A stretch of DNA of 61,071 nt, from positions 1-61,071 of the IMG/VR virus record IMGVR_UViG_2778261463_000006; one strand, written 5' to 3'. Position 1 is the stretch's first letter. The number at the start of each line of letters is the position of its first letter. Below are positions 1 through 23,598 of this stretch, piece after piece. The notes beneath the pieces are model-generated. The model worked only from the letters and a program-made list of their open reading frames with translations. It ran no database searches and had not been told where the DNA came from. A program made the translations under genes and the position numbers. The DNA comes from a virus. Lineage: Duplodnaviria; Heunggongvirae; Uroviricota; Caudoviricetes.

Positions 1-600
1 TTTCAGAAAAACCAGAAGAAGCTGGCGAGACTTCAGCGACAGTTAAGCCGCAAGGTCAAATTCAGCAACAACTGGCAGATGCAGAAACGCAAAATACAGC
101 GACTGCATTTTCGTATCGCAAACATCCGCAGAGACTACCTTCATAAAATCACAACGATCATCAGCAAAAACCACGCAATGATTGTCATTGAGGATTTGAA
201 GGTTAAATACATGTCAAAGTCAGCGGCGGGTACGATAAGTCAGCCGGGGCGCAATGTCCGGGCAAAATCAGGTTTAAACCGTTCGATACTGGATCAGGGC
301 TGGTATGAAATGCGCCGCCAGCTTGAGTACAAGCAGCTCTGGCGTGGCGGTCAGGTACTGGCAGTGCCGCCAGCGTACACAAGCCAGCGTTGCGCGTGCT
401 GTGGCCATACAGCGAAAGAAAACCGCCTGTCACAAAGTAAATTCGTGTGTCGGGATTGTGGATATACAGCGAACGCCGATGTAAACGGCGCTCGTAACAT
501 TTTAGCGGCGGGGCACGCCGTGCTTGCCTGTGGAGGGATGGTGCAGTCAGACCGCCCGTTGAAGCAGGAACCCTCCGAAATGATTCAGGCGACAGCCTGA
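1..600 (+). CDS. tnpB: IS200/IS605-family TnpB (OrfB) RNA-guided nuclease, C-terminal part; 5' end lies outside the window
   Basis: Frame is open from position 1; translation has TnpB-like basic region and C-terminal zinc-finger pattern CxxC...CxxC (QRCACCGH...CRDCGY) with RuvC-like tail; stop at 600. Confidence 0.8.
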
Positions 601-650
601 ACATAGCAGGAATCCACACCCCGAAGGGCGTGGAGGATGTCACGCTGCCT
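1..650 (+). mobile_element. Right portion of an IS200/IS605-family insertion sequence (right end approximate)
   Basis: tnpB followed by imperfect subterminal hairpin at 613-634 (tccacaccc-cgaa-gggcgtgga); abuts the 3' end of the ddrA-like gene. Confidence 0.5.
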
Positions 651-1005
651 CTTTAATGTTGGCGGCTATCCATGCCGCCGTGTGCTGTTTAACCTGGTCC
701 AGGTCGATGTATGTGCCAACATATTGACTCAAATCCTGCAAGGTACCGATAAATGCATCGGTGCTCTGATCGACGAATTTATCAGCCAGGAAATCAGCAA
801 CCAGTTTTGGCACACCATCATGTACCGAAGGTTGTTTTTCCTCGCCACTACTGCCGCCGGACACACCGTACCCCATCTGTTGCATGATCTGGTCAATTTC
901 ATCGCTGATATCCAGCAACTCCATGCCACTCGCGGTAGCCGCTTTGGACATCAGAGCATCCAACTTATCGCTGAGATCCATTAACTCAATAGCTGATAGT
1001 GTCAT
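640..1005 (-). CDS. ddrA: DdrA-like protein of the P1 darA antirestriction operon (121 aa, acidic)
   Basis: ORF immediately downstream of darA, stop/start overlap with it; name from P1 synteny recalled from memory. Confidence 0.5.
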   Translation of the reverse strand: MTLSAIELMDLSDKLDALMSKAATASGMELLDISDEIDQIMQQMGYGVSGGSSGEEKQPSVHDGVPKLVADFLADKFVDQSTDAFIGTLQDLSQYVGTYIDLDQVKQHTAAWIAANIKEAA

Positions 1006-2921
1006 GCCGCTACCCCCGCTTTCTGGATTGCTACCAACAGATCAGCCAGGTGGCGAGCTGCGCCGTTAACCAGCTCTTCGTTTTCCTCAAAACGTCCGGC
1101 AGCCTGAAGGGCTGCAATCGCTTCCCGGACATTGCCCCGGGCGTTACGGATCTCCGCCATGTCAGTGCTTTGTATATCCATCACGTTATTGAGATATTCA
1201 ATGGCTTTATTAGCCTCTGCATCTGCTTCGCTAACCGTTTCATCAGGCTGTGCCGTGGCCGGTTCTGACTGAGTAATCTCACCGACTTCGGCCTGCAATG
1301 CATTGATCATGCTCTGCACCATTTTCTCGGTGCCAGCGCCCCCAGGAAACGCAATATTGGGGAAAGTTTTTTGAAACTGAGTTTTCAGCATTACGCGGAA
1401 CTCGTCTGGTGAGCTGGTGGCCAGCTCCAGAGCTTTTTGTGCATATTTGCCAAACGGACCATTAGTAAGTGTCTTCGCCAGGAAGTCGAAAGAATCCTCG
1501 CGAGGCAATAACTTCAGGTCGTACTCACTCATTTGCTGATCAGAAAGCGGGGTATCGTAAGTAGCAATGCCGTAGCGTGCATATTCATAATACGGGTCAC
1601 CTTCATCAGGGCGCGGCAGAATTGCTTTGTTACCTTCAGGTATTGCGCCAGGGGCCGCCGGACGCATTTGCAGGGCATATCGATATGCACCTACAGAGAC
1701 TTCTGGTTCAGGCGAAGAGCTACCGGTATCCTCCGCTGGTTCAGGTTCGACGTTTTCCGGTTTATGTTCTTCTGGTTGGACCAGGTATTCCGATACATTA
1801 CCCGCTTTATAGGCTTTAAACAGCTTGCCGATCGCATCTGCCATGTCCACACCCTGTATGGATTTAGCCTTGATCATGTATACGCTGCCATCCGGATCGG
1901 TTAACTGGATATACCCTTCGCCGCCCCCAATGAATTGCTTCATTGATGCACCATTACTGAGCGTCACTTCCCCGTCCATATGCATACGATTTTTGATACT
2001 GGCAAGGCGATCCGTCAGCGCGCGAGAGTGCCCACCAGTCATCCCCGCTGGAGCAATGGTATCGCGCCCACCAGTGCGATTGAGCTGTTCAATCTCCGTC
2101 TGCAAACGCTCATTCTCTTCATAAAGAGAATCCGCTTCCGATGCAACAGCGTTAATTTTCTGCTCCAGATCTGCCTTCTGCCCTTCTACCGCTGCCACCT
2201 GATCCGCGAGGTCGCTCATGGCATCCTCTTTCTGGTCACTGTCAGCCTGTAGTTGGGTTATTTCATCAACAAGGGCTTTTTTCTTCTTCTGCGCACGCTG
2301 GAATTTTGCCGAGTTTTTCTCTGCAAGGTTGGCAAGTTTCATGGTGACCTGCGCCAGCGTCATATCACGTCCACTCATCGGAGCAACGGTGTGAGTAACG
2401 TCTTTTTTATTCAGTAAGAACTGGAAAGCAACCAGCGTATCGCTATTGGTGATCCGGTTTTCCGCTGTCGGGCTATGAAACAGAATGCTGATAGTCTGAC
2501 CATCACTGAGCGGAATAATGGCTGGCAAGACCGGCAGCCCGTTAACGTTACGTGCCCGGCCAATTTCAGCGCCGCCGATCGCGCGCGCGCCGCTCTGGGC
2601 CACATCCCCCGTTTTATCACTCCCCGCAGAGATTCCGGTACCATTCAGCTTCTGGTTCAATGCCCGGACAAATGCCTGCATGGTCCGGTGTAACTGCAAA
2701 CGAGTAGAACTAATCGCCTCCAGTAAATCCGTAGCACACCAGTGGATCGGCGTGTCATAGAAGAACGTAGCCTCGATTTCCTCCAGGGTGTTGGATTCCG
2801 TCATCAGATAGCGGTCCTCACCGGCCATTAATGCGCGATATTCATCATCAGTCACTGGCGGGGGAAGCACGTCAAGCCCAGGCTTGATCGTCACCCCTTT
2901 ATTGATATTGAACTGTTCCAT
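1002..2921 (-). CDS. darA: DarA-like defence-against-restriction / capsid internal protein (639 aa)
   Basis: 639-aa ORF with coiled-coil-rich centre; shares motif NSAKFQ with upstream Hdf; position after lydA/lydB/hdf as in P1. Confidence 0.7.
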   Translation of the reverse strand: MEQFNINKGVTIKPGLDVLPPPVTDDEYRALMAGEDRYLMTESNTLEEIEATFFYDTPIHWCATDLLEAISSTRLQLHRTMQAFVRALNQKLNGTGISAGSDKTGDVAQSGARAIGGAEIGRARNVNGLPVLPAIIPLSDGQTISILFHSPTAENRITNSDTLVAFQFLLNKKDVTHTVAPMSGRDMTLAQVTMKLANLAEKNSAKFQRAQKKKKALVDEITQLQADSDQKEDAMSDLADQVAAVEGQKADLEQKINAVASEADSLYEENERLQTEIEQLNRTGGRDTIAPAGMTGGHSRALTDRLASIKNRMHMDGEVTLSNGASMKQFIGGGEGYIQLTDPDGSVYMIKAKSIQGVDMADAIGKLFKAYKAGNVSEYLVQPEEHKPENVEPEPAEDTGSSSPEPEVSVGAYRYALQMRPAAPGAIPEGNKAILPRPDEGDPYYEYARYGIATYDTPLSDQQMSEYDLKLLPREDSFDFLAKTLTNGPFGKYAQKALELATSSPDEFRVMLKTQFQKTFPNIAFPGGAGTEKMVQSMINALQAEVGEITQSEPATAQPDETVSEADAEANKAIEYLNNVMDIQSTDMAEIRNARGNVREAIAALQAAGRFEENEELVNGAARHLADLLVAIQKAGVAA

Positions 2922-2922
2922 G

Positions 2923-3534
2923 TTAATTTCCTGCTTTCAGTTGCTTAAGACGACGTTTGAGTTCGCCATTCCGTGCCTTTTCGTTATTGAGTCGGCCCGT
3001 CTCCTTATCCAGCTTCGCCCGCAAATCAGTGATCTGCTGTTGATTGAAAGACACCGAATTCTGCGCGGACTTATAAGCGGCAACCACCTGAGCATTCCGC
3101 TGTTTTGCTTCTTGCAGGCGCTGAAAGTTGGATTTAACTGCCGGTTTCTTGTCTACCGGATTGGCAACACGCTTCGCTTTGGCGATCAGTGATTTCTGGA
3201 ATTTTGCGGAGTTTTTACGGGCCGCCTGTCCCATGACGGTACCAAGCGTCTTGATATCCGGCGATTGAGCGTTAGGAATAGCTTTTCCATTCAGCCTCAC
3301 AGACGATATATCGCCAGTATCGTTTACCTGTATGGCAAGAATTTGTCCGTCGTTAAGAACCAGCTTTGCGGTTTTAACTTTAACGCCATCTTTCGTTGTT
3401 GCGCGGTTGCTTGAGTCAACCTCAATTACCGTAACACTGGTTTTATTGATCGCCGCGATAAGGGATTTCAGCCCCTTTTCATTAACCTGGTCAAAATCGA
3501 CCGTTGCATACTTATTTTTCGTCATCTGACACAT
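2923..3534 (-). CDS. hdf: Hdf (homolog of DarA fragment)
   Basis: 203 aa; segment AARKNSAKFQKS matches DarA segment AEKNSAKFQRAQ; lies directly upstream of darA. Confidence 0.65.
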   Translation of the reverse strand: MCQMTKNKYATVDFDQVNEKGLKSLIAAINKTSVTVIEVDSSNRATTKDGVKVKTAKLVLNDGQILAIQVNDTGDISSVRLNGKAIPNAQSPDIKTLGTVMGQAARKNSAKFQKSLIAKAKRVANPVDKKPAVKSNFQRLQEAKQRNAQVVAAYKSAQNSVSFNQQQITDLRAKLDKETGRLNNEKARNGELKRRLKQLKAGN

Positions 3535-3955
3535 CCTGTGCGAGATTTATTACGTAACTTCTGCGGATTTGCTGAGTAACAGGGAAAATCCGATACAACG
3601 GGTTAATGAACGAGTCGCCATGCGTAACCATGACGTTGAAATGCCACAGCCGTTCTCCTTTACCCATATATTCAGTGGGTATGTACAACCATTCACTGTT
3701 TTCGCCCTGTTCAGCCGACGTCAGACAACGTTGTTCGCCTTCAATCACTGTCGTCGGCTTCTGAACATCGCGGATCCAATATCTGACCGTTGCGCCGCGC
3801 AAAAACGGGAATTTAGACCGGTATTTGAACGGCACCCGGATGAAACCCGGTTTAATTTCCACATCACCAAGTTCTAAATGCGTGATGTCCTTGCGTTTTA
3901 GCAAATAGCGATCGGCTAAGGCTAACGCAAGAACGCATACACCCCAGCCAATCAT
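3512..3955 (-). CDS. lydB: LydB-like antiholin candidate (147 aa)
   Basis: ORF between holin-like gene and hdf; N-terminal hydrophobic segment; assignment by P1 synteny only. Confidence 0.45.
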   Translation of the reverse strand: MIGWGVCVLALALADRYLLKRKDITHLELGDVEIKPGFIRVPFKYRSKFPFLRGATVRYWIRDVQKPTTVIEGEQRCLTSAEQGENSEWLYIPTEYMGKGERLWHFNVMVTHGDSFINPLYRIFPVTQQIRRSYVINLAQDVSDDEK

Positions 3956-4281
3956 TTCCCGCCTCCCTTTTTCACCAAACTTGTAAGAACATTCAGAATG
4001 CTATCGATATTCACTCGTTTCATCCCTGAAATCACCTCATGACCGTTATTGCTGGCTATCGTTACCATTAAGTACGTAATTGATAACTCCCAGCCCTTGT
4101 GTTGCCCCAATAGGTACGCCACCGCGCCAGCTGTCACTGCAACAAAGATCTCCGTAACCAATCCCAACAAATTGCCAGACTGGCGACCGTCTCGGACATC
4201 CATCAGGAACGTGCCTATCCCACCAATTACTGAAAGCAGGAGCGCAATAGCAACTGGAGCTAATTCCTGTGTGTCAAGCAC
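3952..4281 (-). CDS. lydA: LydA-like holin (109 aa, about three transmembrane segments)
   Basis: Small protein with three hydrophobic helices and charged C-terminus; start overlaps next gene; P1 lydA position. Confidence 0.55.
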   Translation of the reverse strand: MLDTQELAPVAIALLLSVIGGIGTFLMDVRDGRQSGNLLGLVTEIFVAVTAGAVAYLLGQHKGWELSITYLMVTIASNNGHEVISGMKRVNIDSILNVLTSLVKKGGGK

Positions 4282-4355
4282 AAGTTCCCTCCTACGTTGT
4301 CAGGAGGTAATGGTATGCAAAGTAACTTCTCAACCGGTTATGTTGCATAAGAGAC

Positions 4356-4619
4356 TTACCTATTCAACCGACTTTTGGAACCTTCAATAATAAGCCTGCT
4401 ATTGGCGCTGAAAATAAGAACCATGCAGCTCTGAAGGCTTTCATTCATGTCCTTATATTCCGCGAGATACATGCCAATAAAGCCAGCAAGTACGGCGGAA
4501 ATACATTCGGCCAGCAATTTCTTGCATGAAGACTCGTAACGGTTTTCACATAGCCCACTCAAATACGAATACACCCCACCAAGAAGGGATAACATCACGA
4601 TATGTACATAAAATGTCAT
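4356..4619 (-). CDS. Small membrane protein (87 aa, two hydrophobic segments), possible holin-like
   Basis: ORF with two hydrophobic stretches; first gene of the leftward lyd/dar block. Confidence 0.45.
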   Translation of the reverse strand: MTFYVHIVMLSLLGGVYSYLSGLCENRYESSCKKLLAECISAVLAGFIGMYLAEYKDMNESLQSCMVLIFSANSRLIIEGSKSRLNR

Positions 4620-4746
4620 TTTTTACCTATACAACAGTAAGTTGAACAACATTTGAGAACGGTATGCACTTTGTGATTTCCACACACACTGGTTTTGTTA
4701 ATTAAAACCTGTAGCTTGCAATAAATAACGATAGTGGGCAGAAAAT

Positions 4747-4933
4747 ATGCTAATAGGCTATGTACGCATATAGACAAATGAACAAAACACAGCTATGCAG
4801 TGAAAAGCACTTGAAAGCGCAGGATGTGAGCTAATTTTTGCGAATAAGGCGAGCAGCAAAAAGGCTGGGCACCCTGGGTTAAAAAAGGTTCTGCGTATGC
4901 TTTCCAGAGGTGATACCCTAGTCTCGGACTAGG
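4747..4933 (+). pseudogene. Remnant of the N-terminus of a serine DNA invertase (frameshifted/stopped)
   Basis: ATG at 4747 encodes MLIGYVRI then stop; downstream frame reads AGCELIFANKASSKKAGHPGLKKVLRMLSRGDTLV, collinear with Cin residues 1-65; ends in a perfect palindrome 4916-4934. Confidence 0.6.
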
Positions 4934-5054
4934 GACAACATTTCGAGAACAGTTTTCATTAGCGGTCAGCAGGCGCTAGATACATCGAATTGATGTGCCG
5001 CGCGATAAATGTACCTATTCTATCAAGATAAATTACACCGACGCGGCATTAGAA

Positions 5055-5627
5055 TTACAGCTCAGATTGAGTTTGGCGCTTCTCTACAGGATGATAACGA
5101 TAAATCGTCGATACACCGATATCGTAAATAATTGCCAACTGTTTCCTGCTGTAGCCATTTTCGATCAACCTCGCTATTTGCTCATGTTGTTCTTTTGTCA
5201 ACTTCGGGCGACGTCCGCCAATGCGTCCTTGTGCGCGTGCTGCTGCCAGCCCGGCCAGTGTACGCTCTACAATTAATTCACGTTCCATTTCGGCTAAAGC
5301 TCCCATGACGTGAAAAAAGAAACGCCCCATGGGTGTTGATGTGTCAATGCTGTCCGTCAGACTACGGAAATTAACACCTTTTTCCCGCAATTCCTCAATA
5401 AGCGTGATCAGGTGTTTCATACTTCTGCCCAGTCTGTCCAGCTTCCAGACAACCAGCGTATCTCCTTCTGATAGCGTTCTGAGCAGTTTTTTCAATCCCG
5501 GTCTGGCTGATTTCGTTCCGCTGATTTTATCTTCAAAAATCAGTTCACATCCTGCGCACTCCAGCGCGTTACGCTGCAATTCTGTATTCTGGTCATTTGT
5601 TGATACGCGGACATAGCCAATAAGCAT
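5055..5627 (-). CDS. cin: Serine-recombinase DNA invertase (Cin/Gin/Hin/Pin family)
   Basis: 190 aa; catalytic N-terminus MLIGYVRVSTNDQ...VVWKLDRLGRS and C-terminal HTH; adjacent to invertible tail-fibre segment. Confidence 0.9.
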   Translation of the reverse strand: MLIGYVRVSTNDQNTELQRNALECAGCELIFEDKISGTKSARPGLKKLLRTLSEGDTLVVWKLDRLGRSMKHLITLIEELREKGVNFRSLTDSIDTSTPMGRFFFHVMGALAEMERELIVERTLAGLAAARAQGRIGGRRPKLTKEQHEQIARLIENGYSRKQLAIIYDIGVSTIYRYHPVEKRQTQSEL

Positions 5628-5682
5628 GATGGATCCCCTGAATAAAAACCGGGGATGATGCCAGTTAGCCGTAATCTCTGCA

Positions 5683-5708
5683 TTTTCTTAAACGTTGGTT
5701 TGGGAGAA
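5683..5708. other. cix-like 26-bp recombination site (left)
   Basis: TTTTCTTAAACG-TT-GGTTTGGGAGAA; inner half-site is the reverse complement of the inner half-site at 7568-7593; resembles hix/gix architecture. Confidence 0.6.
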
Positions 5709-6206
5709 GGCTCTGCATTACCGGTTGGTGTGCCTGTTCCGTGGCCTTCAGCCACTCCGCCAACAGGCTGGCTGAAATGCAACGGAGCAGCTTTTTCTGC
5801 TGAAGAATACCCGGAGCTGGCAAAGGCTTACCCGACAAATAAATTGCCTGATTTACGTGGTGAGTTTATTCGTGGCTGGGATGACGGACGTGGTATGGAT
5901 ACGGGGAGGGCAATATTATCCGCTCAGGGCGATGCCATACGTAATATCTATGGTGAGTTCAAGACTGTAAACACCGAAAATTATTCAATATGGGAATCAG
6001 TAGGCTCGTTTAAGGGGGCAGTAGTGCCTTTGAACCCCTCAACGAACAATAGTTATTTCTCCTTAATCAGAAGTATGGTGACAGAAAGAACAGATGGCGC
6101 TGTTTACCCAAAAGTGATTGGCCTTGATGCTTCAAGAATTGTTCCAACTGCAAACGAAAACCGTCCTCGTAACATTGCCTTTAATTATATCGTGAGGGCT
6201 GCCTGA
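5697..6206 (+). CDS. Alternative tail-fibre C-terminal segment Sv' (no own start; would fuse in frame to S constant part after inversion)
   Basis: Reading frame continues GLGE... across the crossover exactly as the S frame does at 7579; ORF-track start at 5655 is read-through of the cix site. Confidence 0.55.
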   Translation, partial: GLGEGSALPVGVPVPWPSATPPTGWLKCNGAAFSAEEYPELAKAYPTNKLPDLRGEFIRGWDDGRGMDTGRAILSAQGDAIRNIYGEFKTVNTENYSIWESVGSFKGAVVPLNPSTNNSYFSLIRSMVTERTDGAVYPKVIGLDASRIVPTANENRPRNIAFNYIVRAA

Positions 6207-6808
6207 TGAATAAAGCCGTATTAAATAACGAACTCATTGCCATAAAAGCGGGAGTCATTACCATTTATAATTATGATGGTGAAACGCGGGAATATATTTC
6301 CACATCAACTGAATATCTTGCGGTTGGCGTCGGTATCCCGGCATGTTCTTGTTTAGATGCACCAGTTACACATAAAGCTGGTTATGCAATCTGCCGTTCT
6401 GCAGATTTTAACTCATGGGAATATGTGCCAGACCATCGCGGTGAAATCATCTATAGCACCGAAACAGGAGAATCGAAAGAAATCACAGCTCCGGGTGATT
6501 ATCCTGAAAATACAACCACTATCGCCCCGTTAACGCCATACGATAAATGGGATGGTGAGAAATGGGTGACGGATACCGAGGCACAGCATAGCGCCGCAGT
6601 AGAAGCGGCAGAAGCACAGCGCCAGTCGCTGATTGATGCTGCAATGGCTTCCATCAGTCTGATTCAGCTGAAATTACAGGCCGGGCGGAAGCTGACGCAG
6701 CCAGAAAACACCCGACTTAACGCTGTGCTGGATTATATTGACGCGGTGACGGCAACAGATACCAGCACAGCGCCGGACGTCATCTGGCCTGAACTGCCGG
6801 AGGCGTAG
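6206..6808 (+). CDS. Tail fibre assembly protein U' (for Sv')
   Basis: 200 aa; C-terminus with Tfa hallmark ...DYIDAVTATDTSTAPDVIWPELPEA; start overlaps Sv' stop (TGATG). Confidence 0.75.
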   Translation: MNKAVLNNELIAIKAGVITIYNYDGETREYISTSTEYLAVGVGIPACSCLDAPVTHKAGYAICRSADFNSWEYVPDHRGEIIYSTETGESKEITAPGDYPENTTTIAPLTPYDKWDGEKWVTDTEAQHSAAVEAAEAQRQSLIDAAMASISLIQLKLQAGRKLTQPENTRLNAVLDYIDAVTATDTSTAPDVIWPELPEA

Positions 6809-7220
6809 GCCATTCAATATCTGGCGCACCGGAAGTATCGACCAGTTCCAGTGCGTCCAGATAATCCAGCCACAAATTATATTGCGCCAGTTCCTCACCT
6901 TTCAGGCGACCAATCGCCGCTTTACCAGGCCATTGCTTACTGTTTATGTATTCGTTGACCTGATTAATCAATTGCTGCTTTTCCAGTTCGGCTGCGGCAA
7001 TTTGTTCCTCATGAGTTGGCGGTGGAATATCAATCCATGCAGGCATTCCGTCGATGACACCTCTGTATTTTCCTTCTGGTGCTTCCTTCATAAATTCGGC
7101 GGCAACAGTGTCGTCAATTTCGATTCCATCACCGGGCCATTCGCCGGATTCCTGATAAGCGATTTTAAGCTCCACAGGGAAAAACGCATTTTTCTCGGCA
7201 CTGAAAATATATTTCTGCAT
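6780..7220 (-). CDS. Tail fibre assembly protein U
   Basis: 146 aa; Tfa-family C-terminus ...DYLDALELVDTSGAPDIEWPTPP; immediately downstream of S. Confidence 0.8.
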   Translation of the reverse strand: MQKYIFSAEKNAFFPVELKIAYQESGEWPGDGIEIDDTVAAEFMKEAPEGKYRGVIDGMPAWIDIPPPTHEEQIAAAELEKQQLINQVNEYINSKQWPGKAAIGRLKGEELAQYNLWLDYLDALELVDTSGAPDIEWPTPPAVQAR

Positions 7221-7222
7221 TT

Positions 7223-9019
7223 CTACCGTCCTATCGAAATATAACTGAATCTGTATTGCTGTGAGATATCACTGGTTGCCACACGCCACGCTGAATTACT
7301 GATATGTTCAAAATTTACAGACAAAACCTGCGGGGCAGGATTCGACGGGTCTGACTGAACGGCATCAGACATAACACTGACTGAAACCATCGGCTGATTA
7401 GGGAATGGTATAGGGAAGTGTCCACTGATAAAGCGGGTCGTGTTTCCTGAAAAAGTGCCAAACTGAACAATATATCCACCTGGTAGCCTGAACCATCCCG
7501 AACCAGAAGCGAATGCTCCCATATCCGGTATCTGATTATCTCCTGTGCCCACATCCCTTTTCGCCGCTTCTCCCAAACCAAGGTAATCAAGAACTCCCTG
7601 AGTGCTGGTTTTACCAAGAATGGCACGTCCAACACTTGTCAACGCGGTTAACGCGGCACGATCTGCCCCTGTAAAATATGGGAGTTTATCTGCTGATGTA
7701 GCAAGCTCCGCCAGCGCCGTCAGGGTGGCATCCTTCGGTTGCTTACCCGCAAGCGCGTTAGTCATGGTGGTCGCAAAATTCGGGTCATTGCCCAGCGCCG
7801 CAGCCAGTTCGTTCAGCGTGTTCAGTGCATCAGGTGACGAATCTACAAGTGCGGCAATCGCGGCCATAACGAAAGCCGTGCTTGCGATCTGGGTACTATT
7901 AGTCCCCTGTGGCGCTGTTGGTGTTGTTGGCGTTCCGGTCAGTGCCGGGCTGTTTAATGGTGCTTTCTTGTTCGTTTCATCCATTACCGCCTTAACAGCT
8001 TTTGGTGTCGCTGCCAGCGTTTCAGACGTGCTGTTCGTGGCGCTACTGAGCTGAGTGATGCCTTTCGCTGTCAATGAAGCTGTTGGCACACCAGTGATCT
8101 GATTCCAGGGATGTGTATGACTGGATGGTGCCTTTCCGGCTGCTAGATCGTATGCAGCTTTAACCGCTTTTGGAGTTGCAGCTAATGTTTCAGAAGTGCT
8201 GTTGGTGTCGCTACTGAGCTGAACTATCCCTTTTTGTGTCGTGGTTGCATCCTGGGCTGTATACTTCCCGTTAGCCAGGTCATATGCAGCCTTGACAGCT
8301 TTCGGTGTGGCGGCCAGCACTTCGGACGTGCTGTTAGTGGCACTACTGAGCTGAACTAATCCCTTTTGCGTTGTGCTTGCATCCTGCGCCGTATACTTGC
8401 TTTTCGCCAGATCGTAGGCTTTTTTAACTGCCAGCGAACTCGCAGCAACATCACTTCTGGTACTGGTTACAGAGTCTGAAATATCAATGCCGATCGTGCG
8501 GTTGATACGCTCGGATGTATCAATCATCTCTTGAGTAATGGTAGATACGCCAGCAGGGATATTCACCGTACAAACCAGCAGTTCCCCATCACCTAACTGA
8601 TATGAATCGGTATAGGTTCTGGCAACAAATTCAGCTGCATGAATATGTGACGCGGTATTCACCTGATAGGTATCTTCTCCAAGAAGGTATCTTCCCTTCA
8701 GCACAATTGCATATTTCTTGCCTGCGTTAAGTGCAAGAGAGATATCCTTACGATGCTGAATAGTTACCTGGTAGAATTCACCAATATCCACTGACGCCGC
8801 GCCAGCGGTTTTATCTCCATCCACTGAGGTGATTAACAGGTTCATCCCACCGCCAGGCTTAGGCAAGAAACCAGCATAAAATCCCGGGTCAACAATTCCC
8901 CTGAATTTTCGGTTTAGAGCGGCTGACAGATATGGTTCGTGGTATTGCACATCAGCCACCATAGCCAACGACTCGGGTGATGGGTAAGTAACCGATGTAA
9001 CAACTGTAACGTCATTCAT
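7223..9019 (-). CDS. Tail fibre protein S (constant part 7580-9019, variable C-terminal part Sv 7223-7579)
   Basis: Likely start MNDVTVV at 9019 (ORF track extends to 9106); internal fibre repeats KAVKAAYDLA...TQKG.VQLSS.TNSTSE.LAATP; cix site inside coding frame. Confidence 0.8.
   Translation of the reverse strand: MNDVTVVTSVTYPSPESLAMVADVQYHEPYLSAALNRKFRGIVDPGFYAGFLPKPGGGMNLLITSVDGDKTAGAASVDIGEFYQVTIQHRKDISLALNAGKKYAIVLKGRYLLGEDTYQVNTASHIHAAEFVARTYTDSYQLGDGELLVCTVNIPAGVSTITQEMIDTSERINRTIGIDISDSVTSTRSDVAASSLAVKKAYDLAKSKYTAQDASTTQKGLVQLSSATNSTSEVLAATPKAVKAAYDLANGKYTAQDATTTQKGIVQLSSDTNSTSETLAATPKAVKAAYDLAAGKAPSSHTHPWNQITGVPTASLTAKGITQLSSATNSTSETLAATPKAVKAVMDETNKKAPLNSPALTGTPTTPTAPQGTNSTQIASTAFVMAAIAALVDSSPDALNTLNELAAALGNDPNFATTMTNALAGKQPKDATLTALAELATSADKLPYFTGADRAALTALTSVGRAILGKTSTQGVLDYLGLGEAAKRDVGTGDNQIPDMGAFASGSGWFRLPGGYIVQFGTFSGNTTRFISGHFPIPFPNQPMVSVSVMSDAVQSDPSNPAPQVLSVNFEHISNSAWRVATSDISQQYRFSYISIGR
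7568..7593. other. cix-like 26-bp recombination site (right), inside S
   Basis: TTCTCCCAAACC-AA-GGTAATCAAGAA; matches hix/gix-type architecture; inner 12-bp half-site identical (reverse complement) to left site. Confidence 0.6.
8030..8420 (-). repeat. Three tandem ~120-bp repeats encoding tail-fibre repeat units (boundaries approximate)
   Basis: Near-identical DNA blocks ...gctactgagctga... at about 8040, 8205 and 8335; protein repeats of ~37 aa. Confidence 0.55.
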
Positions 9020-9030
9020 CAAGCATATCC

Positions 9031-9465
9031 TTATGCTGTAGTCGAGTTTATGGCCATAACTGCGGTATATGTTTTGCCCACATACAGCGAGTCTTCTTGG
9101 ACACAAATAATGGCGATTGGCTTATTCTCGTTATCCAGAACAACCAGAGTGTTGAATGGGTAGTTTTTCCCTTCCTGCAACTGACTTTGATCAAGGTCCA
9201 TTCGGACAGTAATTATCCCGCCTGAGTAGGTTGGGACGAGGTTGATGGTGCAAAATTGACTGGTCAGTTCTGCCAGATCGAAAGCCTTTGGCAGTTCTCC
9301 AATCTCATAAGTGCCATCTCCTTTCTTAGTAACCAGTGAACTGGTACCGAAAACGGCCTTGCTGATTAAAAATCGAGAGCCTTTGTTAATGGACGATTCA
9401 GCGCGCCGCTGATAGTAATAGTCCAACAACTGACTCTTATAGAGGTTTGTTGAGACGTCAGACAT
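9031..9465 (-). CDS. R-like tail-fibre-associated structural protein (144 aa)
   Basis: ORF directly upstream of S with tight spacing; assignment by P1 synteny. Confidence 0.45.
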   Translation of the reverse strand: MSDVSTNLYKSQLLDYYYQRRAESSINKGSRFLISKAVFGTSSLVTKKGDGTYEIGELPKAFDLAELTSQFCTINLVPTYSGGIITVRMDLDQSQLQEGKNYPFNTLVVLDNENKPIAIICVQEDSLYVGKTYTAVMAINSTTA

Positions 9466-9543
9466 GATTTTCCCTAATCAATGTTGTGAAGCCTCATTGT
9501 AAGATAAGTAACTTGTCACCCCGCCCTGCGGACGAGGTGATTG

Positions 9544-10383
9544 TCACGCATCGCTATCCAACAGCAAATCATCTGCGCGGGTGCGATCAAACGTAGGCGT
9601 TGCTTTCACAATAGTGCCGCCCGGCGTTGCAGTGATCGGGGCGTTAATCGACGTAACTTCAGTAAGCGAAGTTGTATCCGAAGTTTCAAACCAGCAGAAT
9701 GCTTTTTCGGTATCAGAAATCTCATTCAAAGTGATCATGTCGGCCTGTTCATTTACAACAACCGACAAATAGAGCGTAAGCCCATCAAACACTATATGCA
9801 GTGGCAGTAGAGGCTTTACGAACTGATTAAACTTTCTGAGAATTTCTTCTGTAATTGCGGACTGATCTATCGTTCCAGTAATACCCATTGTCCGGGCCAG
9901 GTCGTTTATGGGAATACTGATCATTCCTCTGGAAGTCAGAAACATCTCGCCGAATGTGCCGCCGGTGGTTTCCAGTGTGCTTTCTGGAATCAGGACCGTG
10001 CCATAGGGATGTCGTTCAAAGTCCACCGGAGCATATATGGGATCCCATAAAACCGATATACCGTTAAATTCGCGATAAATTGTCTGGTTTATAGGGCGTT
10101 CAGTACCCTTAAAATGGATCTCATCAAACCGCTGTTGTAACAACATCGGAACGGAAGATGAATTCGACGTTCTGATAGTAAAAAACTGGCCAAGTTCATT
10201 TGTCCTAGTCTCCAGATCCTCCTTGCTCATGGAGAAAATAGACTTCCGGTTGGTAATTCGCTCCAACCATGGGTCAACAAAGGTGTCCATCATTGACTGA
10301 ACCAAATCAGCCAATGATTTATAAAGCAATGACTTTTGCTTAGCTGATGTAAGCCGGTTATTAAACCAGGAACGTTGCATCAC
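9544..10383 (-). CDS. Baseplate/tail protein (P1 gp16-like, 279 aa)
   Basis: ORF in baseplate block, start overlaps upstream gene end; synteny only. Confidence 0.45.
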   Translation of the reverse strand: MMQRSWFNNRLTSAKQKSLLYKSLADLVQSMMDTFVDPWLERITNRKSIFSMSKEDLETRTNELGQFFTIRTSNSSSVPMLLQQRFDEIHFKGTERPINQTIYREFNGISVLWDPIYAPVDFERHPYGTVLIPESTLETTGGTFGEMFLTSRGMISIPINDLARTMGITGTIDQSAITEEILRKFNQFVKPLLPLHIVFDGLTLYLSVVVNEQADMITLNEISDTEKAFCWFETSDTTSLTEVTSINAPITATPGGTIVKATPTFDRTRADDLLLDSDA

Positions 10384-11813
10384 TCCTCCTCATACGAAAT
10401 ATTGAAGGTGGAGTTTTCTGTATCCAGATAAACGAAATCGTAAAAGCCGTTGGACTCATTCCACTCGACAAACTCCAGATAAAAGTCGCGGAAATAGCCC
10501 AGCGTTTCGATAAACGCCCAAACGTCTTTTTTCTTAATCAGGATGTACTTTCCGACGCGGTTCGGATCAAAGAAAGTTGAGTCGCGCCCAAATTTTTTTT
10601 CCAGTGCCGACTTCAGCTCATCGGTCACATTCTCAATGGTCAGGCTTGCCGATATCCGTCCGGTGATGGTTATCTTAAATGGTAGTTTTCTGACCTCTTT
10701 ATAAGAGAATTTCTTGTTCAGTTCATTCGGTACCTTCTTAAAGGCAGCCAGGATCATTTCTTCAAGCTCTGACTGACTTTTATTCGGATGCCATCCTGAA
10801 ATAAATATCTTATTGATATTCTGAACATTATAAGCACCATCTAATTTTTCTTGCTGACCCTCGCCCCATGCCTTTACCCAGGACAGTCCCGGGATGTTAC
10901 GCACCAGAAAATACGTATAGTCCCCGCCCCATACGACCTGATCATCATAGGCGAGGTAATATTGTGCACGGTTACGTGTGATCTCCGTTGTTTCGGCATC
11001 GGTACCTGTGGTTATAGGTGTCGTTGTCTTAACTGAAATCAAATTAGCTAAATTAGCCGCAGAATCGACAGGCGTCAGGTTTTGGCCAGCAACCAGGGTT
11101 ATATCGCCGTTGGTGCACCATACCTTAAGCGTAATTGTCGAGCCTTCTGGCGGTATTTGCCCAATTAGCCCATCGCCGAATCGAACCCCCAACTGCTCGG
11201 ATGGTTTATAAAACTCAACGTAGACCTGGCTTTTACTACCGGCTAACCGGAACATAGTGCTGGAAGACCACTGCGTGGTCTTACCATCGGTCGTCACGAA
11301 TACTTCCAGCTTATAGCAGACAGCAGTGAGAGCCTTTGATAACACGACTTCCAGAAATTCTTTGGCTGCCGTAACGGTATATGTCACCTCCTGGATTTCC
11401 AACTGTGCCACTTCTACCGTACCGGTGCCGTCAACCAACCTGCATACATCCATAGTCATGTAAGGGTACTGGTCGTCAGATATTAAAGGCGTGTTTTTGG
11501 GGATTACCGCTGGAGCATCTTCACTTGTGGCTGTGATCTCAACCATCCCGGATGACGGTGTTGGCTTGGTACCAACGTAACTATTCGTTTCTGCCGCTGC
11601 CAGGATAGAGGAACGCCGCGTCGCGGTCGATATAAAGCCTTCAGCCAGCGCCGCATCGGCATACTGAAAGCACCTGTAGACAATCTGGGTAATAAACAAT
11701 GTCAGCATCGAGACAAATTGAGAGCCGACAAACTTCGACCAGAATGAATCTTTCTCGACAAGCTCTTCAAACTCTGCACGAATACTGTCTTTAGTCGGTG
11801 TTGTTTTACTCAT
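10380..11813 (-). CDS. Baseplate protein (BplA-like, 477 aa)
   Basis: Large ORF between gp25-like wedge gene and gp16-like gene; synteny with P1 bplA. Confidence 0.5.
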   Translation of the reverse strand: MSKTTPTKDSIRAEFEELVEKDSFWSKFVGSQFVSMLTLFITQIVYRCFQYADAALAEGFISTATRRSSILAAAETNSYVGTKPTPSSGMVEITATSEDAPAVIPKNTPLISDDQYPYMTMDVCRLVDGTGTVEVAQLEIQEVTYTVTAAKEFLEVVLSKALTAVCYKLEVFVTTDGKTTQWSSSTMFRLAGSKSQVYVEFYKPSEQLGVRFGDGLIGQIPPEGSTITLKVWCTNGDITLVAGQNLTPVDSAANLANLISVKTTTPITTGTDAETTEITRNRAQYYLAYDDQVVWGGDYTYFLVRNIPGLSWVKAWGEGQQEKLDGAYNVQNINKIFISGWHPNKSQSELEEMILAAFKKVPNELNKKFSYKEVRKLPFKITITGRISASLTIENVTDELKSALEKKFGRDSTFFDPNRVGKYILIKKKDVWAFIETLGYFRDFYLEFVEWNESNGFYDFVYLDTENSTFNISYEEE

Positions 11814-12169
11814 AGCACCACGTCCTGTGTGATAGTTATGTCCCTGATACGAATGGATATTTTCAACTTATCAAAAGCATCTCCCTCGGCTACTGACAAG
11901 CCAGAAATCGGTATGTCAGGTAAATCTACCGTCAGTTTTTGCAACAGCATTGCCTCAACCGCAATTTGAACATGCGACAAGTTGGTCGGTTCGTGTTTAA
12001 ACTGCGGTAAAACATTGCCCCAAGACGGATCTCCGTATACCTCACCCTGATAAGTGTTTAGCCACTCATATAAACGAGCGCCCCAGGCCTCCTCCTGGGA
12101 CTCATACGTTTTTACGCCGGATAACTCCAGCGTCAGTAAAGGATCAATTTCATTATTGTTGGCCATCAA
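11810..12169 (-). CDS. gp25-like baseplate wedge protein (PmgA-like, 119 aa)
   Basis: Size and sequence character of GPW/gp25 family; sits immediately downstream of sit. Confidence 0.5.
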   Translation of the reverse strand: MMANNNEIDPLLTLELSGVKTYESQEEAWGARLYEWLNTYQGEVYGDPSWGNVLPQFKHEPTNLSHVQIAVEAMLLQKLTVDLPDIPISGLSVAEGDAFDKLKISIRIRDITITQDVVL

Positions 12170-15100
12170 TCAACTCTCGCGTAGTCATTCATCAACGGAT
12201 CATCAATTGACAGTGGTACCGTGCGCATAACGCCCGGCTGAGGCGTGCTGACCTTTACGACAGTTCCCTGGCCTTTCGCCGAGTCTTTGGTGTGCTCTTC
12301 AATCCTGGCAAGCAATGAGGTCATCTGCGCAAACAGCCGCTTCGTTTCACCATCAAGTGAAACGGTATTATCAGCCAACTGCATTGTCGGCTTGGCACCG
12401 GAACCGCCAAGGTCACTAATAACCTGCCCGTCTATCTGCATACGACCGGTTGGTTGCTGCAAATCGTTGGCGGCAGTCGTCACCTGGGACGTGGAGGCTG
12501 GTTCAGGCGCATTATTTTTCCGCATCCCCGGCGAGTTGCGGAGTTTATCGAATAGTCCATCAATCCCCATTTGTGCGCCGAGATGGTCAAAGTAACTTGA
12601 GTTGTTGGCCACCGGACGCGCCTCTTCAACTGGCATCGGGGTATCAACATACACATTGCCAGCTGCTGTTGCGGTCCCCTTCCCTCGTGCACGTTCTTCG
12701 AGCGTTCCCTGAACGACTTCCCGACGCATCCCCCGGCCATTCATGAATTTGTTGACCAGATCGTTAACGCCAACAGCATTGCCAATTTTGTCTACCAGAC
12801 CGCCTTTCTCAAACGGGCTATCACCAGGGGTAAACGCCAGGCCAGTAGACTGATCGATAACAGCGTTATCAGGCAGTGGTCCCCTCACTCCATATTGCGC
12901 CCCACCCTGTGCTCCTGCTCCAGGTGTATAGATTTCACCACCTAAATAGCGAGCACGATGAGTATTGACCTTGATCGCGTACTCACGGTTTTCTTTCGAT
13001 AAGTCACCTGTGCCTTTTTTCCACTTATTGATAGTGCCAAACCCAGCATTATATGCAGTGATGGCCTCGTTTAAGTCTCCATTGGCTTGCTTCAGATATT
13101 TGCTCATGAGAAGAGCCGCAGCTTCTGCCGATTTCACAGGATCAAACGATTCACCTTCAGCTAAGCCAGTCTCTTCACGAGCAATCCCCGTGAACTGAAA
13201 CATCCCCAGAGCACCGGTTTGGGATTTTGCATACGGATTACCACCAGATTCAGTTGCAGCAATCGCGTAAAGAGTGCCTTCTGGAAGACCGTATTTATTC
13301 TCTAGTTCGGCAAAATACGGAGCCAACTTATCGAGATTTGCCTTGCCTTCAGCGCCAAGACTTCCGACTTTTACATCCAAGTTGCCATTGTTGTAGGTAT
13401 CCGCAGCTTTCTGAATGTCATTCCTGGTGCCAGTGGTATTAAACGACGATGATGACGAGCTATTTTGACCAATAGCTTTATCAATTTTCTGCAACGCGCT
13501 ATTGCCCGTTTCTACGGCATTTGCATTGATAATCTGATTGGCAGTTTGTTTTACTGTTTTATTGCTATCTTTCGCCGTGTCAAGTGCCGCATTTATCACG
13601 CGGGTAGCAATATTACTCTGTTTGGCATCGGATTCAGTTTTAGAATTAGACGTCTCCTGGTGGCTATTAACCGGAGCTTTTAACTCTGGAGTGATTTCTT
13701 TCGCATTAGCCTCGCCGATTGGATTGGGTATTTTTGATACAATCATTGCCGCAGGGGTATTTTTAACGGCATCAACCGCTGCATCTAATGCTTTACCTGG
13801 TAAATTTTTAACCCCATCCCAAATATTACCAGCCGCCTCTTTAATGTGTTTCCCAGGGTTCTTAATGAAATCAATTGCACTATCAATTGCATCACTGAAA
13901 ACCTGTTTCAGGTTATCGACAGTAAAGAAGTCTTTGATGGCATCCAGCTTTTCAAGCAGCTTATTAGATGTATCGCTAAACCATGCTGAAACAGCATCAC
14001 CAATCTTTGCTGTGTAATCATCGAACTTGGTAGAAATGGTGTCGCCAAGGTTAGCAATATATGTTTCTAAGTTGGTAATCCCACTATCAATGGCCTGGGC
14101 AATACTTTCCGTCGAAAATGATTGCAACATATTGCCGATATCCTCAAATCCAAGTGATTTGAGAACCTCACCAATGGCGCTGCTAATACCAGATACCAGT
14201 CCCCCCATATCAAGAACATTAGCTAACGTATAAGCGGCTTTTTGCTGGAATGATGGATCTTGTCCTGATTTAAGCCCAAACGCTCGACGTTGCGCTTCTG
14301 TATCATTCCAACCGGTTACCGCATCATAAATACCTCCAGCCACTGTGCCGACTAGGGGAATTGCGCGTAACGCCCCTTTACCAACTGCCTTTAATCCAAG
14401 TTTACCTGCTGCCCGGGCAGCCAAATCTCCGCCTTCATGGGCGAGAGTCTTCTTGCCACCACCGCGTAGCATTCCTACAAGTTTCTTTGCCCCCAGAGCG
14501 CCAAAAGCGAGTGCTCCAGCTTTTTTCAGCATGCCACGCCCCATTAACAACGACGCGACGCCACCGGCCCCCTTCCCTAACAGGCTAAATAGTTTGGACA
14601 GCAAGCCGCCCTTCTTTTTCCCGGTGTTTTTGGCTATCTGATCAAGGGCGCTGAGAATCTTGTCATTGCCCTCTTTAATTTCGCTGGTCTGCTCCTGAAG
14701 TTCCTGAACCGTCCGTTTTTGGGTGTTAACCTGAACGACATCGGCACTATTTTGCGATTTACGCCTAAAAAAACCTTTTCTACGGCTGTTATCGTCATTG
14801 CCACGAATCACATCGGCAATAGACTTTCTGGCACCATTAAGCGATCCACCAACTTCTTTTGATATCCCGCCAAGCTCCTTCCCTGCTGCCCACAATGGAC
14901 CAGCAACGGCATAACCTAACGCATCGACGGCACGAGTTTCTGAAGGGTTACCTATGCCTTCAGCTACTTTTGACAGTTTTTTTAATAAACCTGATTCAGC
15001 ATTTAGACGCTCATCATCCTCTTTGCGCCTGGCCTTTTCAGCACGTTCAGCACGGGCATCTTCCGCTGCGGCCTTACTCCCTGACTTTCCAATAAAACGA

Positions 15101-15558
15101 CCACGCGCATCGCGTTGGTTTTGGCTTTTTTGCGCACCGCCTTTTTGACCGAACATTTCGCGAGCGTGTTCAGCTGCTTCGGTTCGTTGCGCCTTTACAT
15201 CTTCTGTTATAGCCTTCTTGCGTCGTTTTTTACCCTTTCGCGTAGTTGATTTGGCCTGCGGTTCCTGTAGAGCAACATCCTCCTGAACTACACGAGAAAC
15301 GTCCCCTAAATTAAGCCGTTTCATTGCCTCAACAATAGGGTCCACTGATGGCGCATTGGCCACAAAGTCTGGCCGGGAATTTTCGATTGTGCGATTTAAT
15401 GCCGACACACTGCGAGAGACAGGATCAACAGTTGCAACGCGCCCCCCTTTCAAATCTTCAACAGCTTCCCGGATACCAGCAAGCTCTTCCAGCTCTTTTG
15501 CGCTGGCGGTTTCAACTGTCCTTATAACATCGTCAATGTTGGCGTTTTTTCTTTCCAT
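12166..15558 (-). CDS. sit: Sit-like structural injection transglycosylase / tape-measure-like protein (1130 aa)
   Basis: Soluble lytic transglycosylase motif ...AIAATESGGNPYAKSQTGALGMFQF...; Gly/Lys-rich and coiled-coil regions; size matches P1 Sit. Confidence 0.8.
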   Translation of the reverse strand: MERKNANIDDVIRTVETASAKELEELAGIREAVEDLKGGRVATVDPVSRSVSALNRTIENSRPDFVANAPSVDPIVEAMKRLNLGDVSRVVQEDVALQEPQAKSTTRKGKKRRKKAITEDVKAQRTEAAEHAREMFGQKGGAQKSQNQRDARGRFIGKSGSKAAAEDARAERAEKARRKEDDERLNAESGLLKKLSKVAEGIGNPSETRAVDALGYAVAGPLWAAGKELGGISKEVGGSLNGARKSIADVIRGNDDNSRRKGFFRRKSQNSADVVQVNTQKRTVQELQEQTSEIKEGNDKILSALDQIAKNTGKKKGGLLSKLFSLLGKGAGGVASLLMGRGMLKKAGALAFGALGAKKLVGMLRGGGKKTLAHEGGDLAARAAGKLGLKAVGKGALRAIPLVGTVAGGIYDAVTGWNDTEAQRRAFGLKSGQDPSFQQKAAYTLANVLDMGGLVSGISSAIGEVLKSLGFEDIGNMLQSFSTESIAQAIDSGITNLETYIANLGDTISTKFDDYTAKIGDAVSAWFSDTSNKLLEKLDAIKDFFTVDNLKQVFSDAIDSAIDFIKNPGKHIKEAAGNIWDGVKNLPGKALDAAVDAVKNTPAAMIVSKIPNPIGEANAKEITPELKAPVNSHQETSNSKTESDAKQSNIATRVINAALDTAKDSNKTVKQTANQIINANAVETGNSALQKIDKAIGQNSSSSSSFNTTGTRNDIQKAADTYNNGNLDVKVGSLGAEGKANLDKLAPYFAELENKYGLPEGTLYAIAATESGGNPYAKSQTGALGMFQFTGIAREETGLAEGESFDPVKSAEAAALLMSKYLKQANGDLNEAITAYNAGFGTINKWKKGTGDLSKENREYAIKVNTHRARYLGGEIYTPGAGAQGGAQYGVRGPLPDNAVIDQSTGLAFTPGDSPFEKGGLVDKIGNAVGVNDLVNKFMNGRGMRREVVQGTLEERARGKGTATAAGNVYVDTPMPVEEARPVANNSSYFDHLGAQMGIDGLFDKLRNSPGMRKNNAPEPASTSQVTTAANDLQQPTGRMQIDGQVISDLGGSGAKPTMQLADNTVSLDGETKRLFAQMTSLLARIEEHTKDSAKGQGTVVKVSTPQPGVMRTVPLSIDDPLMNDYARVD

Positions 15559-19071: not shown

Positions 19072-19239
19072 GTATTTTTAAGTCGCGAATGCTATCTTTT
19101 CGCATCATATTGACCTTTTAATCGTTCAGGCTTATAGTTCCGCCGTCGTAGCAAATTCTGCGACCGGGTTTAGCAGCCTGAATGATTGTGCGGACAGCCG
19201 CAGATATCCGATATTGCGGTATTTTTGTGTCCGTAAAAC

Positions 19240-19330
19240 CGCGTTACGCCCAAATTATGGTGGGGCGTGATGGGGAGGCTTCGGCCTGCTGGTTTCACAA
19301 TCGCCAGTCTGCTAACCCCGTCACGTCCTG
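19240..19330 (+). ncRNA. c4: c4-like antisense RNA of immunity region immI (boundaries approximate)
   Basis: Contains cacaatc (19296-19302) and ctgctaa (19309-19315), complementary to direct repeats gtttagcagc/tgattgtg at 19168-19190 and 19337-19374; the latter abuts the icd Shine-Dalgarno. Confidence 0.45.
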
Positions 19331-19385
19331 CCACCTGTTTAGCAGCGGGTAGCAGGTTGTTAAACCTGATTGTGAGGCCGTAACT

Positions 19386-22783: not shown

Positions 22784-22965
22784 TACACCCGCTGCGGTGT
22801 GCTTGAGGCTATCTGCTTCAGGCATTCCCCGAAAAGCAGATAGAAGAAAGCCCCAGTAAACATTATGCGTCCCGCACAACGCTTAACATTAACCGGGGCC
22901 ATACCTATGCTTAGCATACGTAGATTAACCCTCTCCCCTTTTAAGGAGCAAGGAATTTTTTACTG

Positions 22966-23598
22966 CTATGCCGCCTTTCCAGTTATGGATTCTGCGACAA
23001 GAACAACCCCATGCTTACTTCGATCCGGATGTTCACTCCATATCTCGGATTCAGGAATACTTTTCCCGTCATAGCAAACACGTTCGCCGTCAAACGGGTA
23101 ATACTGAGCAGCATCGGTGTCGAGGATAAACACTTTTAGCTCGGAAGAGCGACGGGCGATATGTTGCCAAAGAGCTTTTCCACCTTCGTATTGCTCATTA
23201 TCACTGAGCAAAACAACACCAGCTTTTGAGGCTACGGTTTCGTAAACAAAAGTAGCTAAACCGACATCCCGGACAGTTCCATCAACCACGATACCTTCAA
23301 TCTGGCCAACATCGCTATCCTCCCAGAACTTCCTTACCAGTACGCCTTCAAGCTGCGGGCGACGTTGAAGTTCAAGAGTAGCGACAACCTTATGCCGCAT
23401 ATCACCATCGATAACAGAAGGCGCAGCCTCTATTACAGCTGCAAATGGGGTTTTGGAATCCCATATAACCTGGTAAAGCACACCCTGGATGGTAACTCCG
23501 TCCAGGATCGAAAATCGACGAGCGACAGTACCCGGGGAGTACGACATTGGAATCACAGCCATTTTAGAGTCCCCCTTTAACAGTACAGGCACAAACAT
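22966..23598 (-). CDS. Hypothetical protein (about 198-210 aa)
   Basis: Clean ORF; C1 operator-like site in its upstream region. Confidence 0.5.
   Translation of the reverse strand: MFVPVLLKGDSKMAVIPMSYSPGTVARRFSILDGVTIQGVLYQVIWDSKTPFAAVIEAAPSVIDGDMRHKVVATLELQRRPQLEGVLVRKFWEDSDVGQIEGIVVDGTVRDVGLATFVYETVASKAGVVLLSDNEQYEGGKALWQHIARRSSELKVFILDTDAAQYYPFDGERVCYDGKSIPESEIWSEHPDRSKHGVVLVAESITGKAA

Follow-up and report, generated by a model that had tools for sequence, protein, structure and literature searches.

A tnpA-less IS609-type element at the ddrA-ddrB junction of SJ46-like, P1-like phage-plasmids and its predicted TnpB target

Our analyses support as likely a scenario in which a tnpA-less element of the IS609 type, carried by an SJ46-like sublineage of P1-like phage-plasmids, sits silently between ddrA and an intact ddrB and encodes a TnpB and an omega-RNA directed against the empty version of its own site. 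The right-hand part of this element opens the window, i.e. the whole stretch of 61,071 nucleotides analysed here (IMG/VR record IMGVR_UViG_2778261463_000006). The element inserted 3' of a TTAT within the last sense codon of ddrA, leaving DdrA unaltered on one side and the ribosome-binding region and ORF of ddrB unharmed on the other, and is fixed in one SJ46-like sublineage. According to this scenario, it would express TnpB together with a structured omega-RNA, the 3' guide of which would be templated by window positions 644-659. The resulting complex would spare its own genome, in which the guide match is preceded by TCAC, and would cut the unoccupied site TTAT|GCTGCCTCTTTAATGT, an activity expected to restore the IS after excision and to convert or eliminate co-resident IS-free P1-like genomes. 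ddrB would presumably still be expressed from transcripts that start at the late promoter LPdar and cross the IS antisense to tnpB. Since the right end is TCAC and tnpA is absent, excision of the element may not occur at all, in which case the role classically assigned to TnpB would no longer be required.

Identity and boundaries of the element

The window begins at codon 204 of tnpB; the left end (LE) of the element, Asp183 of TnpB and ddrB were therefore taken from relatives. The features of the element itself lying within the window are the following:

1-600, plus strand: 3' part of tnpB (codons 204-402 plus stop), from Pfam and NCBIfam matches and the alignment to ISDra2 TnpB
190-192, plus strand: codon of TnpB RuvC Glu267, from the alignment to ISDra2 TnpB 8bf8
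391-393, 400-402, 448-450 and 457-459, plus strand: codons of the TnpB zinc-finger cysteines
478-480, plus strand: codon of TnpB RuvC Asp363, from the alignment to ISDra2 TnpB 8bf8
601-643, plus strand: non-coding right end (RE), with a hairpin at 613-634 and the cleavage tetranucleotide TCAC at 640-643, from the family alignment and the comparison of empty and filled sites

Frame 1 of the plus strand is open over positions 1-600, closing with a TGA at 598-600, and encodes the last 199 of the 402 residues of a TnpB. This partial ORF matched the Pfam families OrfB_IS605 (3.7e-20) and Cas12f1-like_TNB (zinc ribbon; 7.9e-25), and its product matches the TnpB of plasmid pLAO38 (402 aa) at 100% identity over residues 204-402. 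The full 402-aa protein scored 386 bits against NCBIfam guided_TnpB, and its residues 5-377 aligned with the ISDra2 TnpB structure 8bf8 (E 3.7e-51) with conservation of RuvC D183/E267/D363 and of the CxxC...CxxC motif. The RuvC D-E-D triad and C-terminal zinc finger expected of a TnpB RNA-guided endonuclease are consequently present, E267, D363 and C334/C337/C353/C356 being encoded in the window and D183 being read from the identical pLAO38 protein.

At the DNA level the element is 93.7% identical to the IS609 copy of E. coli K-12 over tnpB and the RE (positions 100-1334), and can be referred to IS609 by identity to this reference. Full-length relatives in the family carry a divergent Y1 (HUH) TnpA of 138-147 aa between LE and tnpB, whereas in the phage copy, as read in relatives, merely 83 nt separate LE from the start of tnpB, leaving no room for tnpA; a tblastn search for tnpA across the whole window likewise returned no match. 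The Y1 TnpA typical of the IS200/IS605 family is thus missing, and from this sequence evidence the element is a non-autonomous, tnpA-less IS609-type derivative of that family, resembling its other tnpB-only members.

Comparison of empty and filled sites delimits an element of exactly 1,335 bp, with a target neither duplicated nor deleted and with no terminal inverted repeats. Window positions 1-643 constitute its right-hand 643 bp, the right end being base 643 and the left end lying 691 nt before base 1. The empty site of P1 and plasmid pRHB25-C13_2 reads ...CAT CCCTGTTACGCC TTAT|GCTGCCTCTTTAATG..., and occupied sites read ...TTAT[CCAATGTGCC ... GGAGGATGTCAC]GCTGCCTCTTTAATG... The junctions proper are ...CGCCTTAT|GCTGCC... 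where empty (P1, L004) and TTAT[CCAATGTG...GGATGTCAC]GCTGCC where filled (L001, L003, L005 and the window), and they recur identically in 12 IMG/VR contigs, so that insertion took place 3' of TTAT on the plus strand (empty TTAT|GCTG; filled TTAT[1,335 bp]GCTG). A left flank of TTAT or TTAC was found in 15 independent insertions of the IS609 family, for which the published cleavage sites are TTAT (left) and TCAA (right; PMC6906374).

The right boundary was confirmed independently by aligning the window to 26 homologous elements of other Enterobacterales (27 family members in total), similarity ending right after GGAGGATGTCA[A/C]. The terminal tetranucleotide here is TCAC (640-643), as opposed to TCAA in 20 other family members, and homology to IS-free P1 genomes begins at window position 644 (megablast). 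Subterminal hairpins, characteristic of IS200/IS605 elements, occur at both ends, that of the RE within the window and that of LE (CTCCCCAC...GTGGGGAT) beyond it, in relatives L001, L003 and L005. The initial annotation, which had the window opening within the TnpB gene of an IS200/IS605-family element with a subterminal right-end hairpin, is upheld by these results (Pfam, NCBIfam and the pLAO38 identity in the case of the gene). It had also advised searching upstream for tnpA and for the bounds of the IS: no tnpA was found, and the left end was located in relatives, 83 nt from the tnpB start of a clean 1,335-bp element.

Consequences for ddrA, ddrB and the Dar operon

To the right of the element, the minus strand carries part of the Dar operon, which in P1 is ordered lydA-lydB-hdf-darA-ddrA-ddrB:

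640-1005, minus strand: ddrA (121 aa), stop TGA at 640-642, from the ORF list, the P1 annotation and the junction alignment
1002-2921, minus strand: darA (639 aa), from Pfam DarA_N and DarA_C and P1 synteny
2923-3534, minus strand: hdf (203 aa, DarA_N-like), from P1 synteny

Equivalents of lydB, lydA and cin lie beyond hdf, and ddrA, darA, hdf, lydB and lydA keep the P1 order within the window. Positions 644-1100 share 96-99.6% DNA identity with the ddrA-darA region of P1, P7 and many P1-like phages (megablast).

On the minus strand of P1, ddrA ends ...GAG GCA GCA TAA and is followed, after 12 nt, by the ATG of ddrB. The insertion point falls between bases 2 and 3 of the last Ala codon of ddrA, and occupied copies read ...GAG GCA GC|G TGA, in which G and TGA are the complement of the terminal TCAC of the element. 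The right end of the IS therefore supplies both the third base of the last Ala codon (643) and a new stop codon (640-642), and since the Ala codon is restored and a TGA added, DdrA is unchanged, with 121 aa and the same C-terminus. A 146-aa antisense ORF (203-643, minus strand), the GTG start of which overlaps the new ddrA TGA (GTGA), was considered as a candidate for translational coupling and rejected for lack of conservation, since it measures only 66 aa in IS variant B and 6-31 aa in the remaining IS609 copies; it is probably fortuitous.

The initial annotation had proposed that the IS displaced or disrupted ddrB, leaving the phage devoid of its last Dar component. Two observations could be read in that sense, namely that a tblastn search for ddrB across the window gave no match and that the IS occupies precisely the ddrA-ddrB junction of P1. 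Nevertheless, wherever a relative shares the junction exactly and extends far enough to the left (13 of 13), ddrB is full-length and begins 15 nt to the left of the element; pLAO38, with 100% identity to window positions 1-1255, is among them, and the insertion represents a clean addition of 1,335 bp with nothing deleted. The encoded DdrB has 995 aa in most occupied relatives and 991 aa in one divergent allele, and the ddrB leader, A TAA GGCGTAACAGGG ATG, is preserved in all 13. Loss of ddrB is accordingly extremely unlikely, and, judging from these relatives, this phage lineage almost certainly has a complete rather than a truncated set of Dar antirestriction genes. An intact adjacent ddrB, which the initial annotation had itself named as the observation that would overturn its proposal, is what the relatives display. 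Its statement that ddrB follows ddrA in P1 holds, with a 12-nt spacer, and so does its remark that the element abuts the stop of the ddrA-like gene, which in fact the element overlaps; its placement of the IS at the 3' end of the darA operon does not, given that the element sits inside the operon, between ddrA and ddrB. The practical outcome is thus a correction, in that ddrB is almost certainly not lost, and the finding is real yet ordinary.

The main consequence of the insertion might instead be regulatory, if a convergent insert of 1.3 kb lowered the expression of ddrB (and hxr) or uncoupled it from the late darA operon, thereby altering the antirestriction spectrum. The IS does part two genes that only 12 nt separate in P1, tnpB and the operon run convergently, and DdrB is a virion protein that helps the addition of DarB to the capsid (PMC9024508; PMC12810830). 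Against such an effect, ddrB has remained unbroken where the flanks diverge by ~2-3% and also as an allele of 78% identity, a sign that it is still used, its 15-nt leader is unaltered, and a scan through the IS in the operon direction gave no terminator-like signal above chance (shuffle expectation). We consider it unlikely that a regulatory effect of this kind is the main consequence; the maintenance of an unbroken ddrB across diverged lineages rather suggests that the gene is still expressed.

The allele in question was observed in two IMG/VR loci (L007 and L017), where the same IS lies beside a ddrB ~78% identical over the first 1 kb (991 aa), and where the IS consequently abuts a recombination breakpoint.

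Elsewhere in the window, C4 antisense RNA and its a1/b1 target elements (immI region) were identified at 19132-19338 (plus strand), both above Rfam gathering scores, confirming a P1-type organisation of immunity. A sok/CssrC antitoxin RNA (Rfam, 72.9 bits, above gathering score) lies at 22797-22970 (plus strand), downstream of a repL-like gene, with no obvious Hok-like peptide among nearby ORFs of at least 25 aa. Four tRNA genes occur at 40139-40385 and 42190-42265 (plus strand), namely Asn(GTT), 'Tyr(GTA)' (87 nt, low score), Thr(TGT) and a Met/Ile-type (CAT); P1 has three tRNAs, and the Tyr-like gene between Asn and Thr may be the extra one relative to P1.

Predicted omega-RNA, guide and target

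Consensus folding of 21 homologous elements over their final 260 nt returned seven helices, spanning window positions 474-634. The following features were predicted:

474-643, plus strand: predicted omega-RNA (reRNA) scaffold, overlapping both the 3' end of tnpB and the RE, from the RNAalifold consensus
474-478/486-490, 505-510/516-521, 527-531/564-568 and 535-542/551-557, plus strand: first four scaffold helices
575-576/609-610, 580-590/595-604 and 613-621/626-634, plus strand: remaining scaffold helices
644-659 (possibly to 663), plus strand: predicted template of the omega-RNA guide, GCTGCCTCTTTAATGT, the first 16 nt past the RE following the geometry of Karvelis 2021

Across the seven helices, pairing holds in 97.5% of cells and compensatory double changes occur at nine pairs, values reached in none of 500 column shuffles, while register-shifted controls were 35-51% paired. 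The seventh helix corresponds to the hairpin at 613-634 (5'-UCCAC.CCC-CGAA-GGG.GUGGA, -12.7 kcal/mol), which had been pointed out in the initial annotation and is substantiated both by its fold energy and by its maintenance with compensatory changes across the 21 elements; as this helix doubles as the DNA hairpin recognised by TnpA, its conservation is not specific to a role in RNA. The single-sequence minimum free energy fold partly differs from the consensus, pairing 533-538 with 571-576, and the helices supported by covariation were preferred. The sole Rfam match across the element was to RAGATH-18 at 527-570, with a sub-threshold score of 28.1 bits (gathering score 44.9; E 0.0079); RAGATH-18-derived RNAs are guide RNAs of IS607 TnpBs (PMC11061315). 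Altogether, the helices in the last ~170 nt are consistent with an omega-RNA scaffold, that is, with a conserved structured RNA overlapping the 3' end of tnpB.

Within the RE hairpin, the centre was found to be reverse-complemented between the two IS variants described below (window 617-630 vs L005 5617-5630; ACCCCGAAGGGC vs GCCCTTCGGGGC), an inversion of the loop that leaves the stem unbroken except for one A.C mismatch in the window copy.

In the established mechanism of TnpB, the guide corresponds to the 16-20 nt past the right end and the target-adjacent motif (TAM) to the target motif of the transposon (PMC8612924). By this rule the predicted guide is window 644-659 and the predicted TAM is TTAT or TTAC, which lends support to the initial proposal that the guide derives from the 3' region of ddrA past the right end. 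The template lies antisense to the last ddrA codons, and the guide sequence is identical to the bases that follow TTAT at the unoccupied site of P1 and of 57 other loci. In the element's own genome the same sequence is preceded by TCAC, which is not a TAM, and that genome should therefore be spared. The only other near match to the guide in the window, a 15/16 match at 13832-13847 (plus strand; GCCGCCTCTTTAATGT) inside a 1,130-aa ORF (12166-15558, minus strand), was rejected as a self-target, the closest TTAC being off register by 2 nt; the stretch encodes an IKEAA peptide, as does the C-terminus of DdrA.

Among 69 unoccupied IMG/VR contigs, 58 carry a perfect 16-nt target and 11 have changes within it, seven of the latter at guide positions 1-2. 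The changes, in IS-free loci L130-L140, comprise G1T (n=5, turning the last DdrA residue from Ala to Glu), C2T (n=1), T15C (n=4) and one locus with TTAC and two changes. They could represent plain polymorphism or escape from TnpB targeting. Because P1 and the majority of P1-like plasmids carry sequences matching the predicted guide and TAM, the system offers a handy natural setting for testing TnpB homing and exclusion between phage-plasmids.

Distribution, history and comparison with known systems

The element is borne by ~16% of P1-like plasmids. In PLSDB, the ddrB-ddrA junction region was matched by 469 plasmids, 355 of them uninterrupted, and the IS-ddrA junction was found in 75; the latter junction also occurs in 64 complete E. 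coli genomes, and IS609 relatives in 4,919 out of 5,426 E. coli genomes. All 12 occupied IMG/VR contigs have the element at the ddrA/ddrB site. Among phages, megablast placed window positions 1-643 beside ddrA only in SJ46, RCS47 and vB_EcoM-813R1, where the element is annotated as insQ or IS605 transposase. The closest records were pLAO38 (100% over window 1-1255), SJ46 (99.3%), a Salmonella Agona plasmid and the 12 IMG/VR contigs, and no record was identical past ~1.25 kb when window positions 1-1100 and 1-15000 were searched by megablast among phages, plasmids and E. coli genomes.

Occupied sites contain two variants of the IS (A and B), which differ at 48 of 1,335 positions in a patchy manner (113-182, 772-852, 1049-1058, 1137-1148 and 1295-1317), and one locus (L013) is a mosaic, in which variant A is interrupted by foreign sequence at 613-1148. 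This pattern suggests gene conversion between phage-borne and other IS609 copies. Alternatively, the site could be a hot spot that received the element recurrently and independently, in place of one ancestral event, as might be argued from a divergence between variants that exceeds that of the flanks and from the presence of filled sites on several flank haplotypes. Both variants nonetheless share the derived TCAC end, absent from the 20 other family members, which speaks for one original insertion, and their junctions are identical; the clustering of their differences and the L013 mosaic are as expected from gene conversion, and the target of TnpA needs just TTAY, a motif far too common to account for an exact repeat of the site. 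Recurrent insertion is for these reasons very unlikely.

Occupied sites lie on many flanking haplotypes, from E. coli, E. albertii and Salmonella, and over 1 kb of flank their nearest neighbours are usually unoccupied genomes. The presence of the IS is unlinked to flanking SNPs past ~100 bp, a figure based on only 8 usable filled haplotypes. This spread fits TnpB-driven homing, but linkage between ordinary SNPs of the same region decays within ~100-200 bp, almost as fast, and ordinary recombination among mosaic phages is therefore sufficient to explain it.

The element may be an immobile relic, an inert passenger the TnpB and RNA of which have no consequence and which persists by hitch-hiking and recombination among P1-like plasmids; we regard this as a genuine, if minority, possibility. 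tnpA is missing, the RE cleavage site is TCAC instead of the TCAA of the family, the K-12 IS609 copy likewise has a tnpA pseudogene, and the rapid decay of SNP linkage around the site makes homing dispensable. Many natural TnpBs are weak, and a scan of the tnpB strand of the IS gave no promoter-like site above shuffle expectation. Other observations are less easily reconciled with a relic. Translation of four copies (variants A and B, L013 and L007) showed an unbroken 402-codon ORF in each, at up to 3.6% divergence and with an excess of synonymous changes (22 synonymous vs 14 nonsynonymous codon differences in tnpB between variants A and B), the catalytic and zinc-binding residues of TnpB are retained, and the RNA helices are held by compensatory changes. 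Moreover, gene drive by TnpB in plasmids has been shown experimentally for other elements (bioRxiv 10.1101/2025.02.20.638934). Our preferred reading remains a silent insertion with a TnpB and omega-RNA that target the empty site.

A bolder extension, which we advance tentatively and with some doubt, would make this tnpB-only IS609 copy a natural gene drive and an anti-competitor weapon of one P1-like lineage, cutting superinfecting or co-resident IS-free genomes. If so, genomes that had been cut would be destroyed or converted through recombinational repair, the same insertion on many haplotypes of E. coli, E. albertii and Salmonella at ~16% would be explained, and the target variants at seed positions in some IS-free genomes would suggest escape alleles.

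The type of element, its TnpB, the logic of TAM and guide, and the presence of such elements in P1-like phage-plasmids are already known and annotated. The K-12 IS609 (insQ/yncK locus) has in common with the phage copy a 402-aa TnpB, a TTAT left flank, LE and RE hairpins and the GGAGGATGTCA end; it differs in its 1,748 bp with a divergent tnpA pseudogene, compared with 1,335 bp and no tnpA in the phage copy, in the first ~100 nt, and in an RE ending in TCAA in place of TCAC. The RE of the K-12 copy (…GGATGTCAA; L018 = NC_000913.3, 8906-8909) likewise supplies the TGA of a convergent gene, ydcO, the CDS of which ends 3 nt inside the annotated IS609. Two minor observations deserve to be retained, namely that the IS right end takes over the final codon base and stop of ddrA silently, as happens at ydcO, and that the predicted guide matches the ddrA/ddrB junction of P1 itself exactly.

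Insertions of IS609 or IS609-like elements are known in the P1-like phage-plasmids pJIE250-3 and pSvP1 (Venturini et al. 2019, PMC6906374), members of the same phage family that bear a tnpB-only element of this kind (~1.34 kb). In pJIE250-3 the element is situated between the head-processing and lysis operons, unlike the ddrA/ddrB site described here, whereas SJ46 and RCS47 have an annotated insQ at exactly this site. In the papers on these P1-like IS609 insertions (PMC6906374; SJ46, RCS47), no discussion was found of the replacement of the ddrA stop codon or of the relation between guide and target.

ISDra2 TnpB (PMC8612924; 8bf8, 8exa, 8h1j) belongs to the same protein family, with the same length, triad and zinc finger, and in ISDra2, as predicted here, the guide scaffold overlaps the tnpB 3' end and the RE and the TAM is the target motif; the TAM is however TTGAT, vs the TTAY predicted for this element, and ISDra2 has a tnpA, which is absent here. 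Experiments have established that TnpB drives the inheritance of its IS in plasmids and acts against IS-free copies (bioRxiv 10.1101/2025.02.20.638934; 10.1101/2023.03.14.532601). Mears et al. (bioRxiv 10.1101/2025.02.20.638934) studied the arrangement predicted here, in which an extrachromosomal replicon carries an IS with TnpB and the guide matches the IS-free version of that replicon. Their experiments concerned multicopy and conjugative plasmids, with no mention of phage-plasmids, whereas the present case is that of a low-copy P1-like prophage with a tnpA-less IS.
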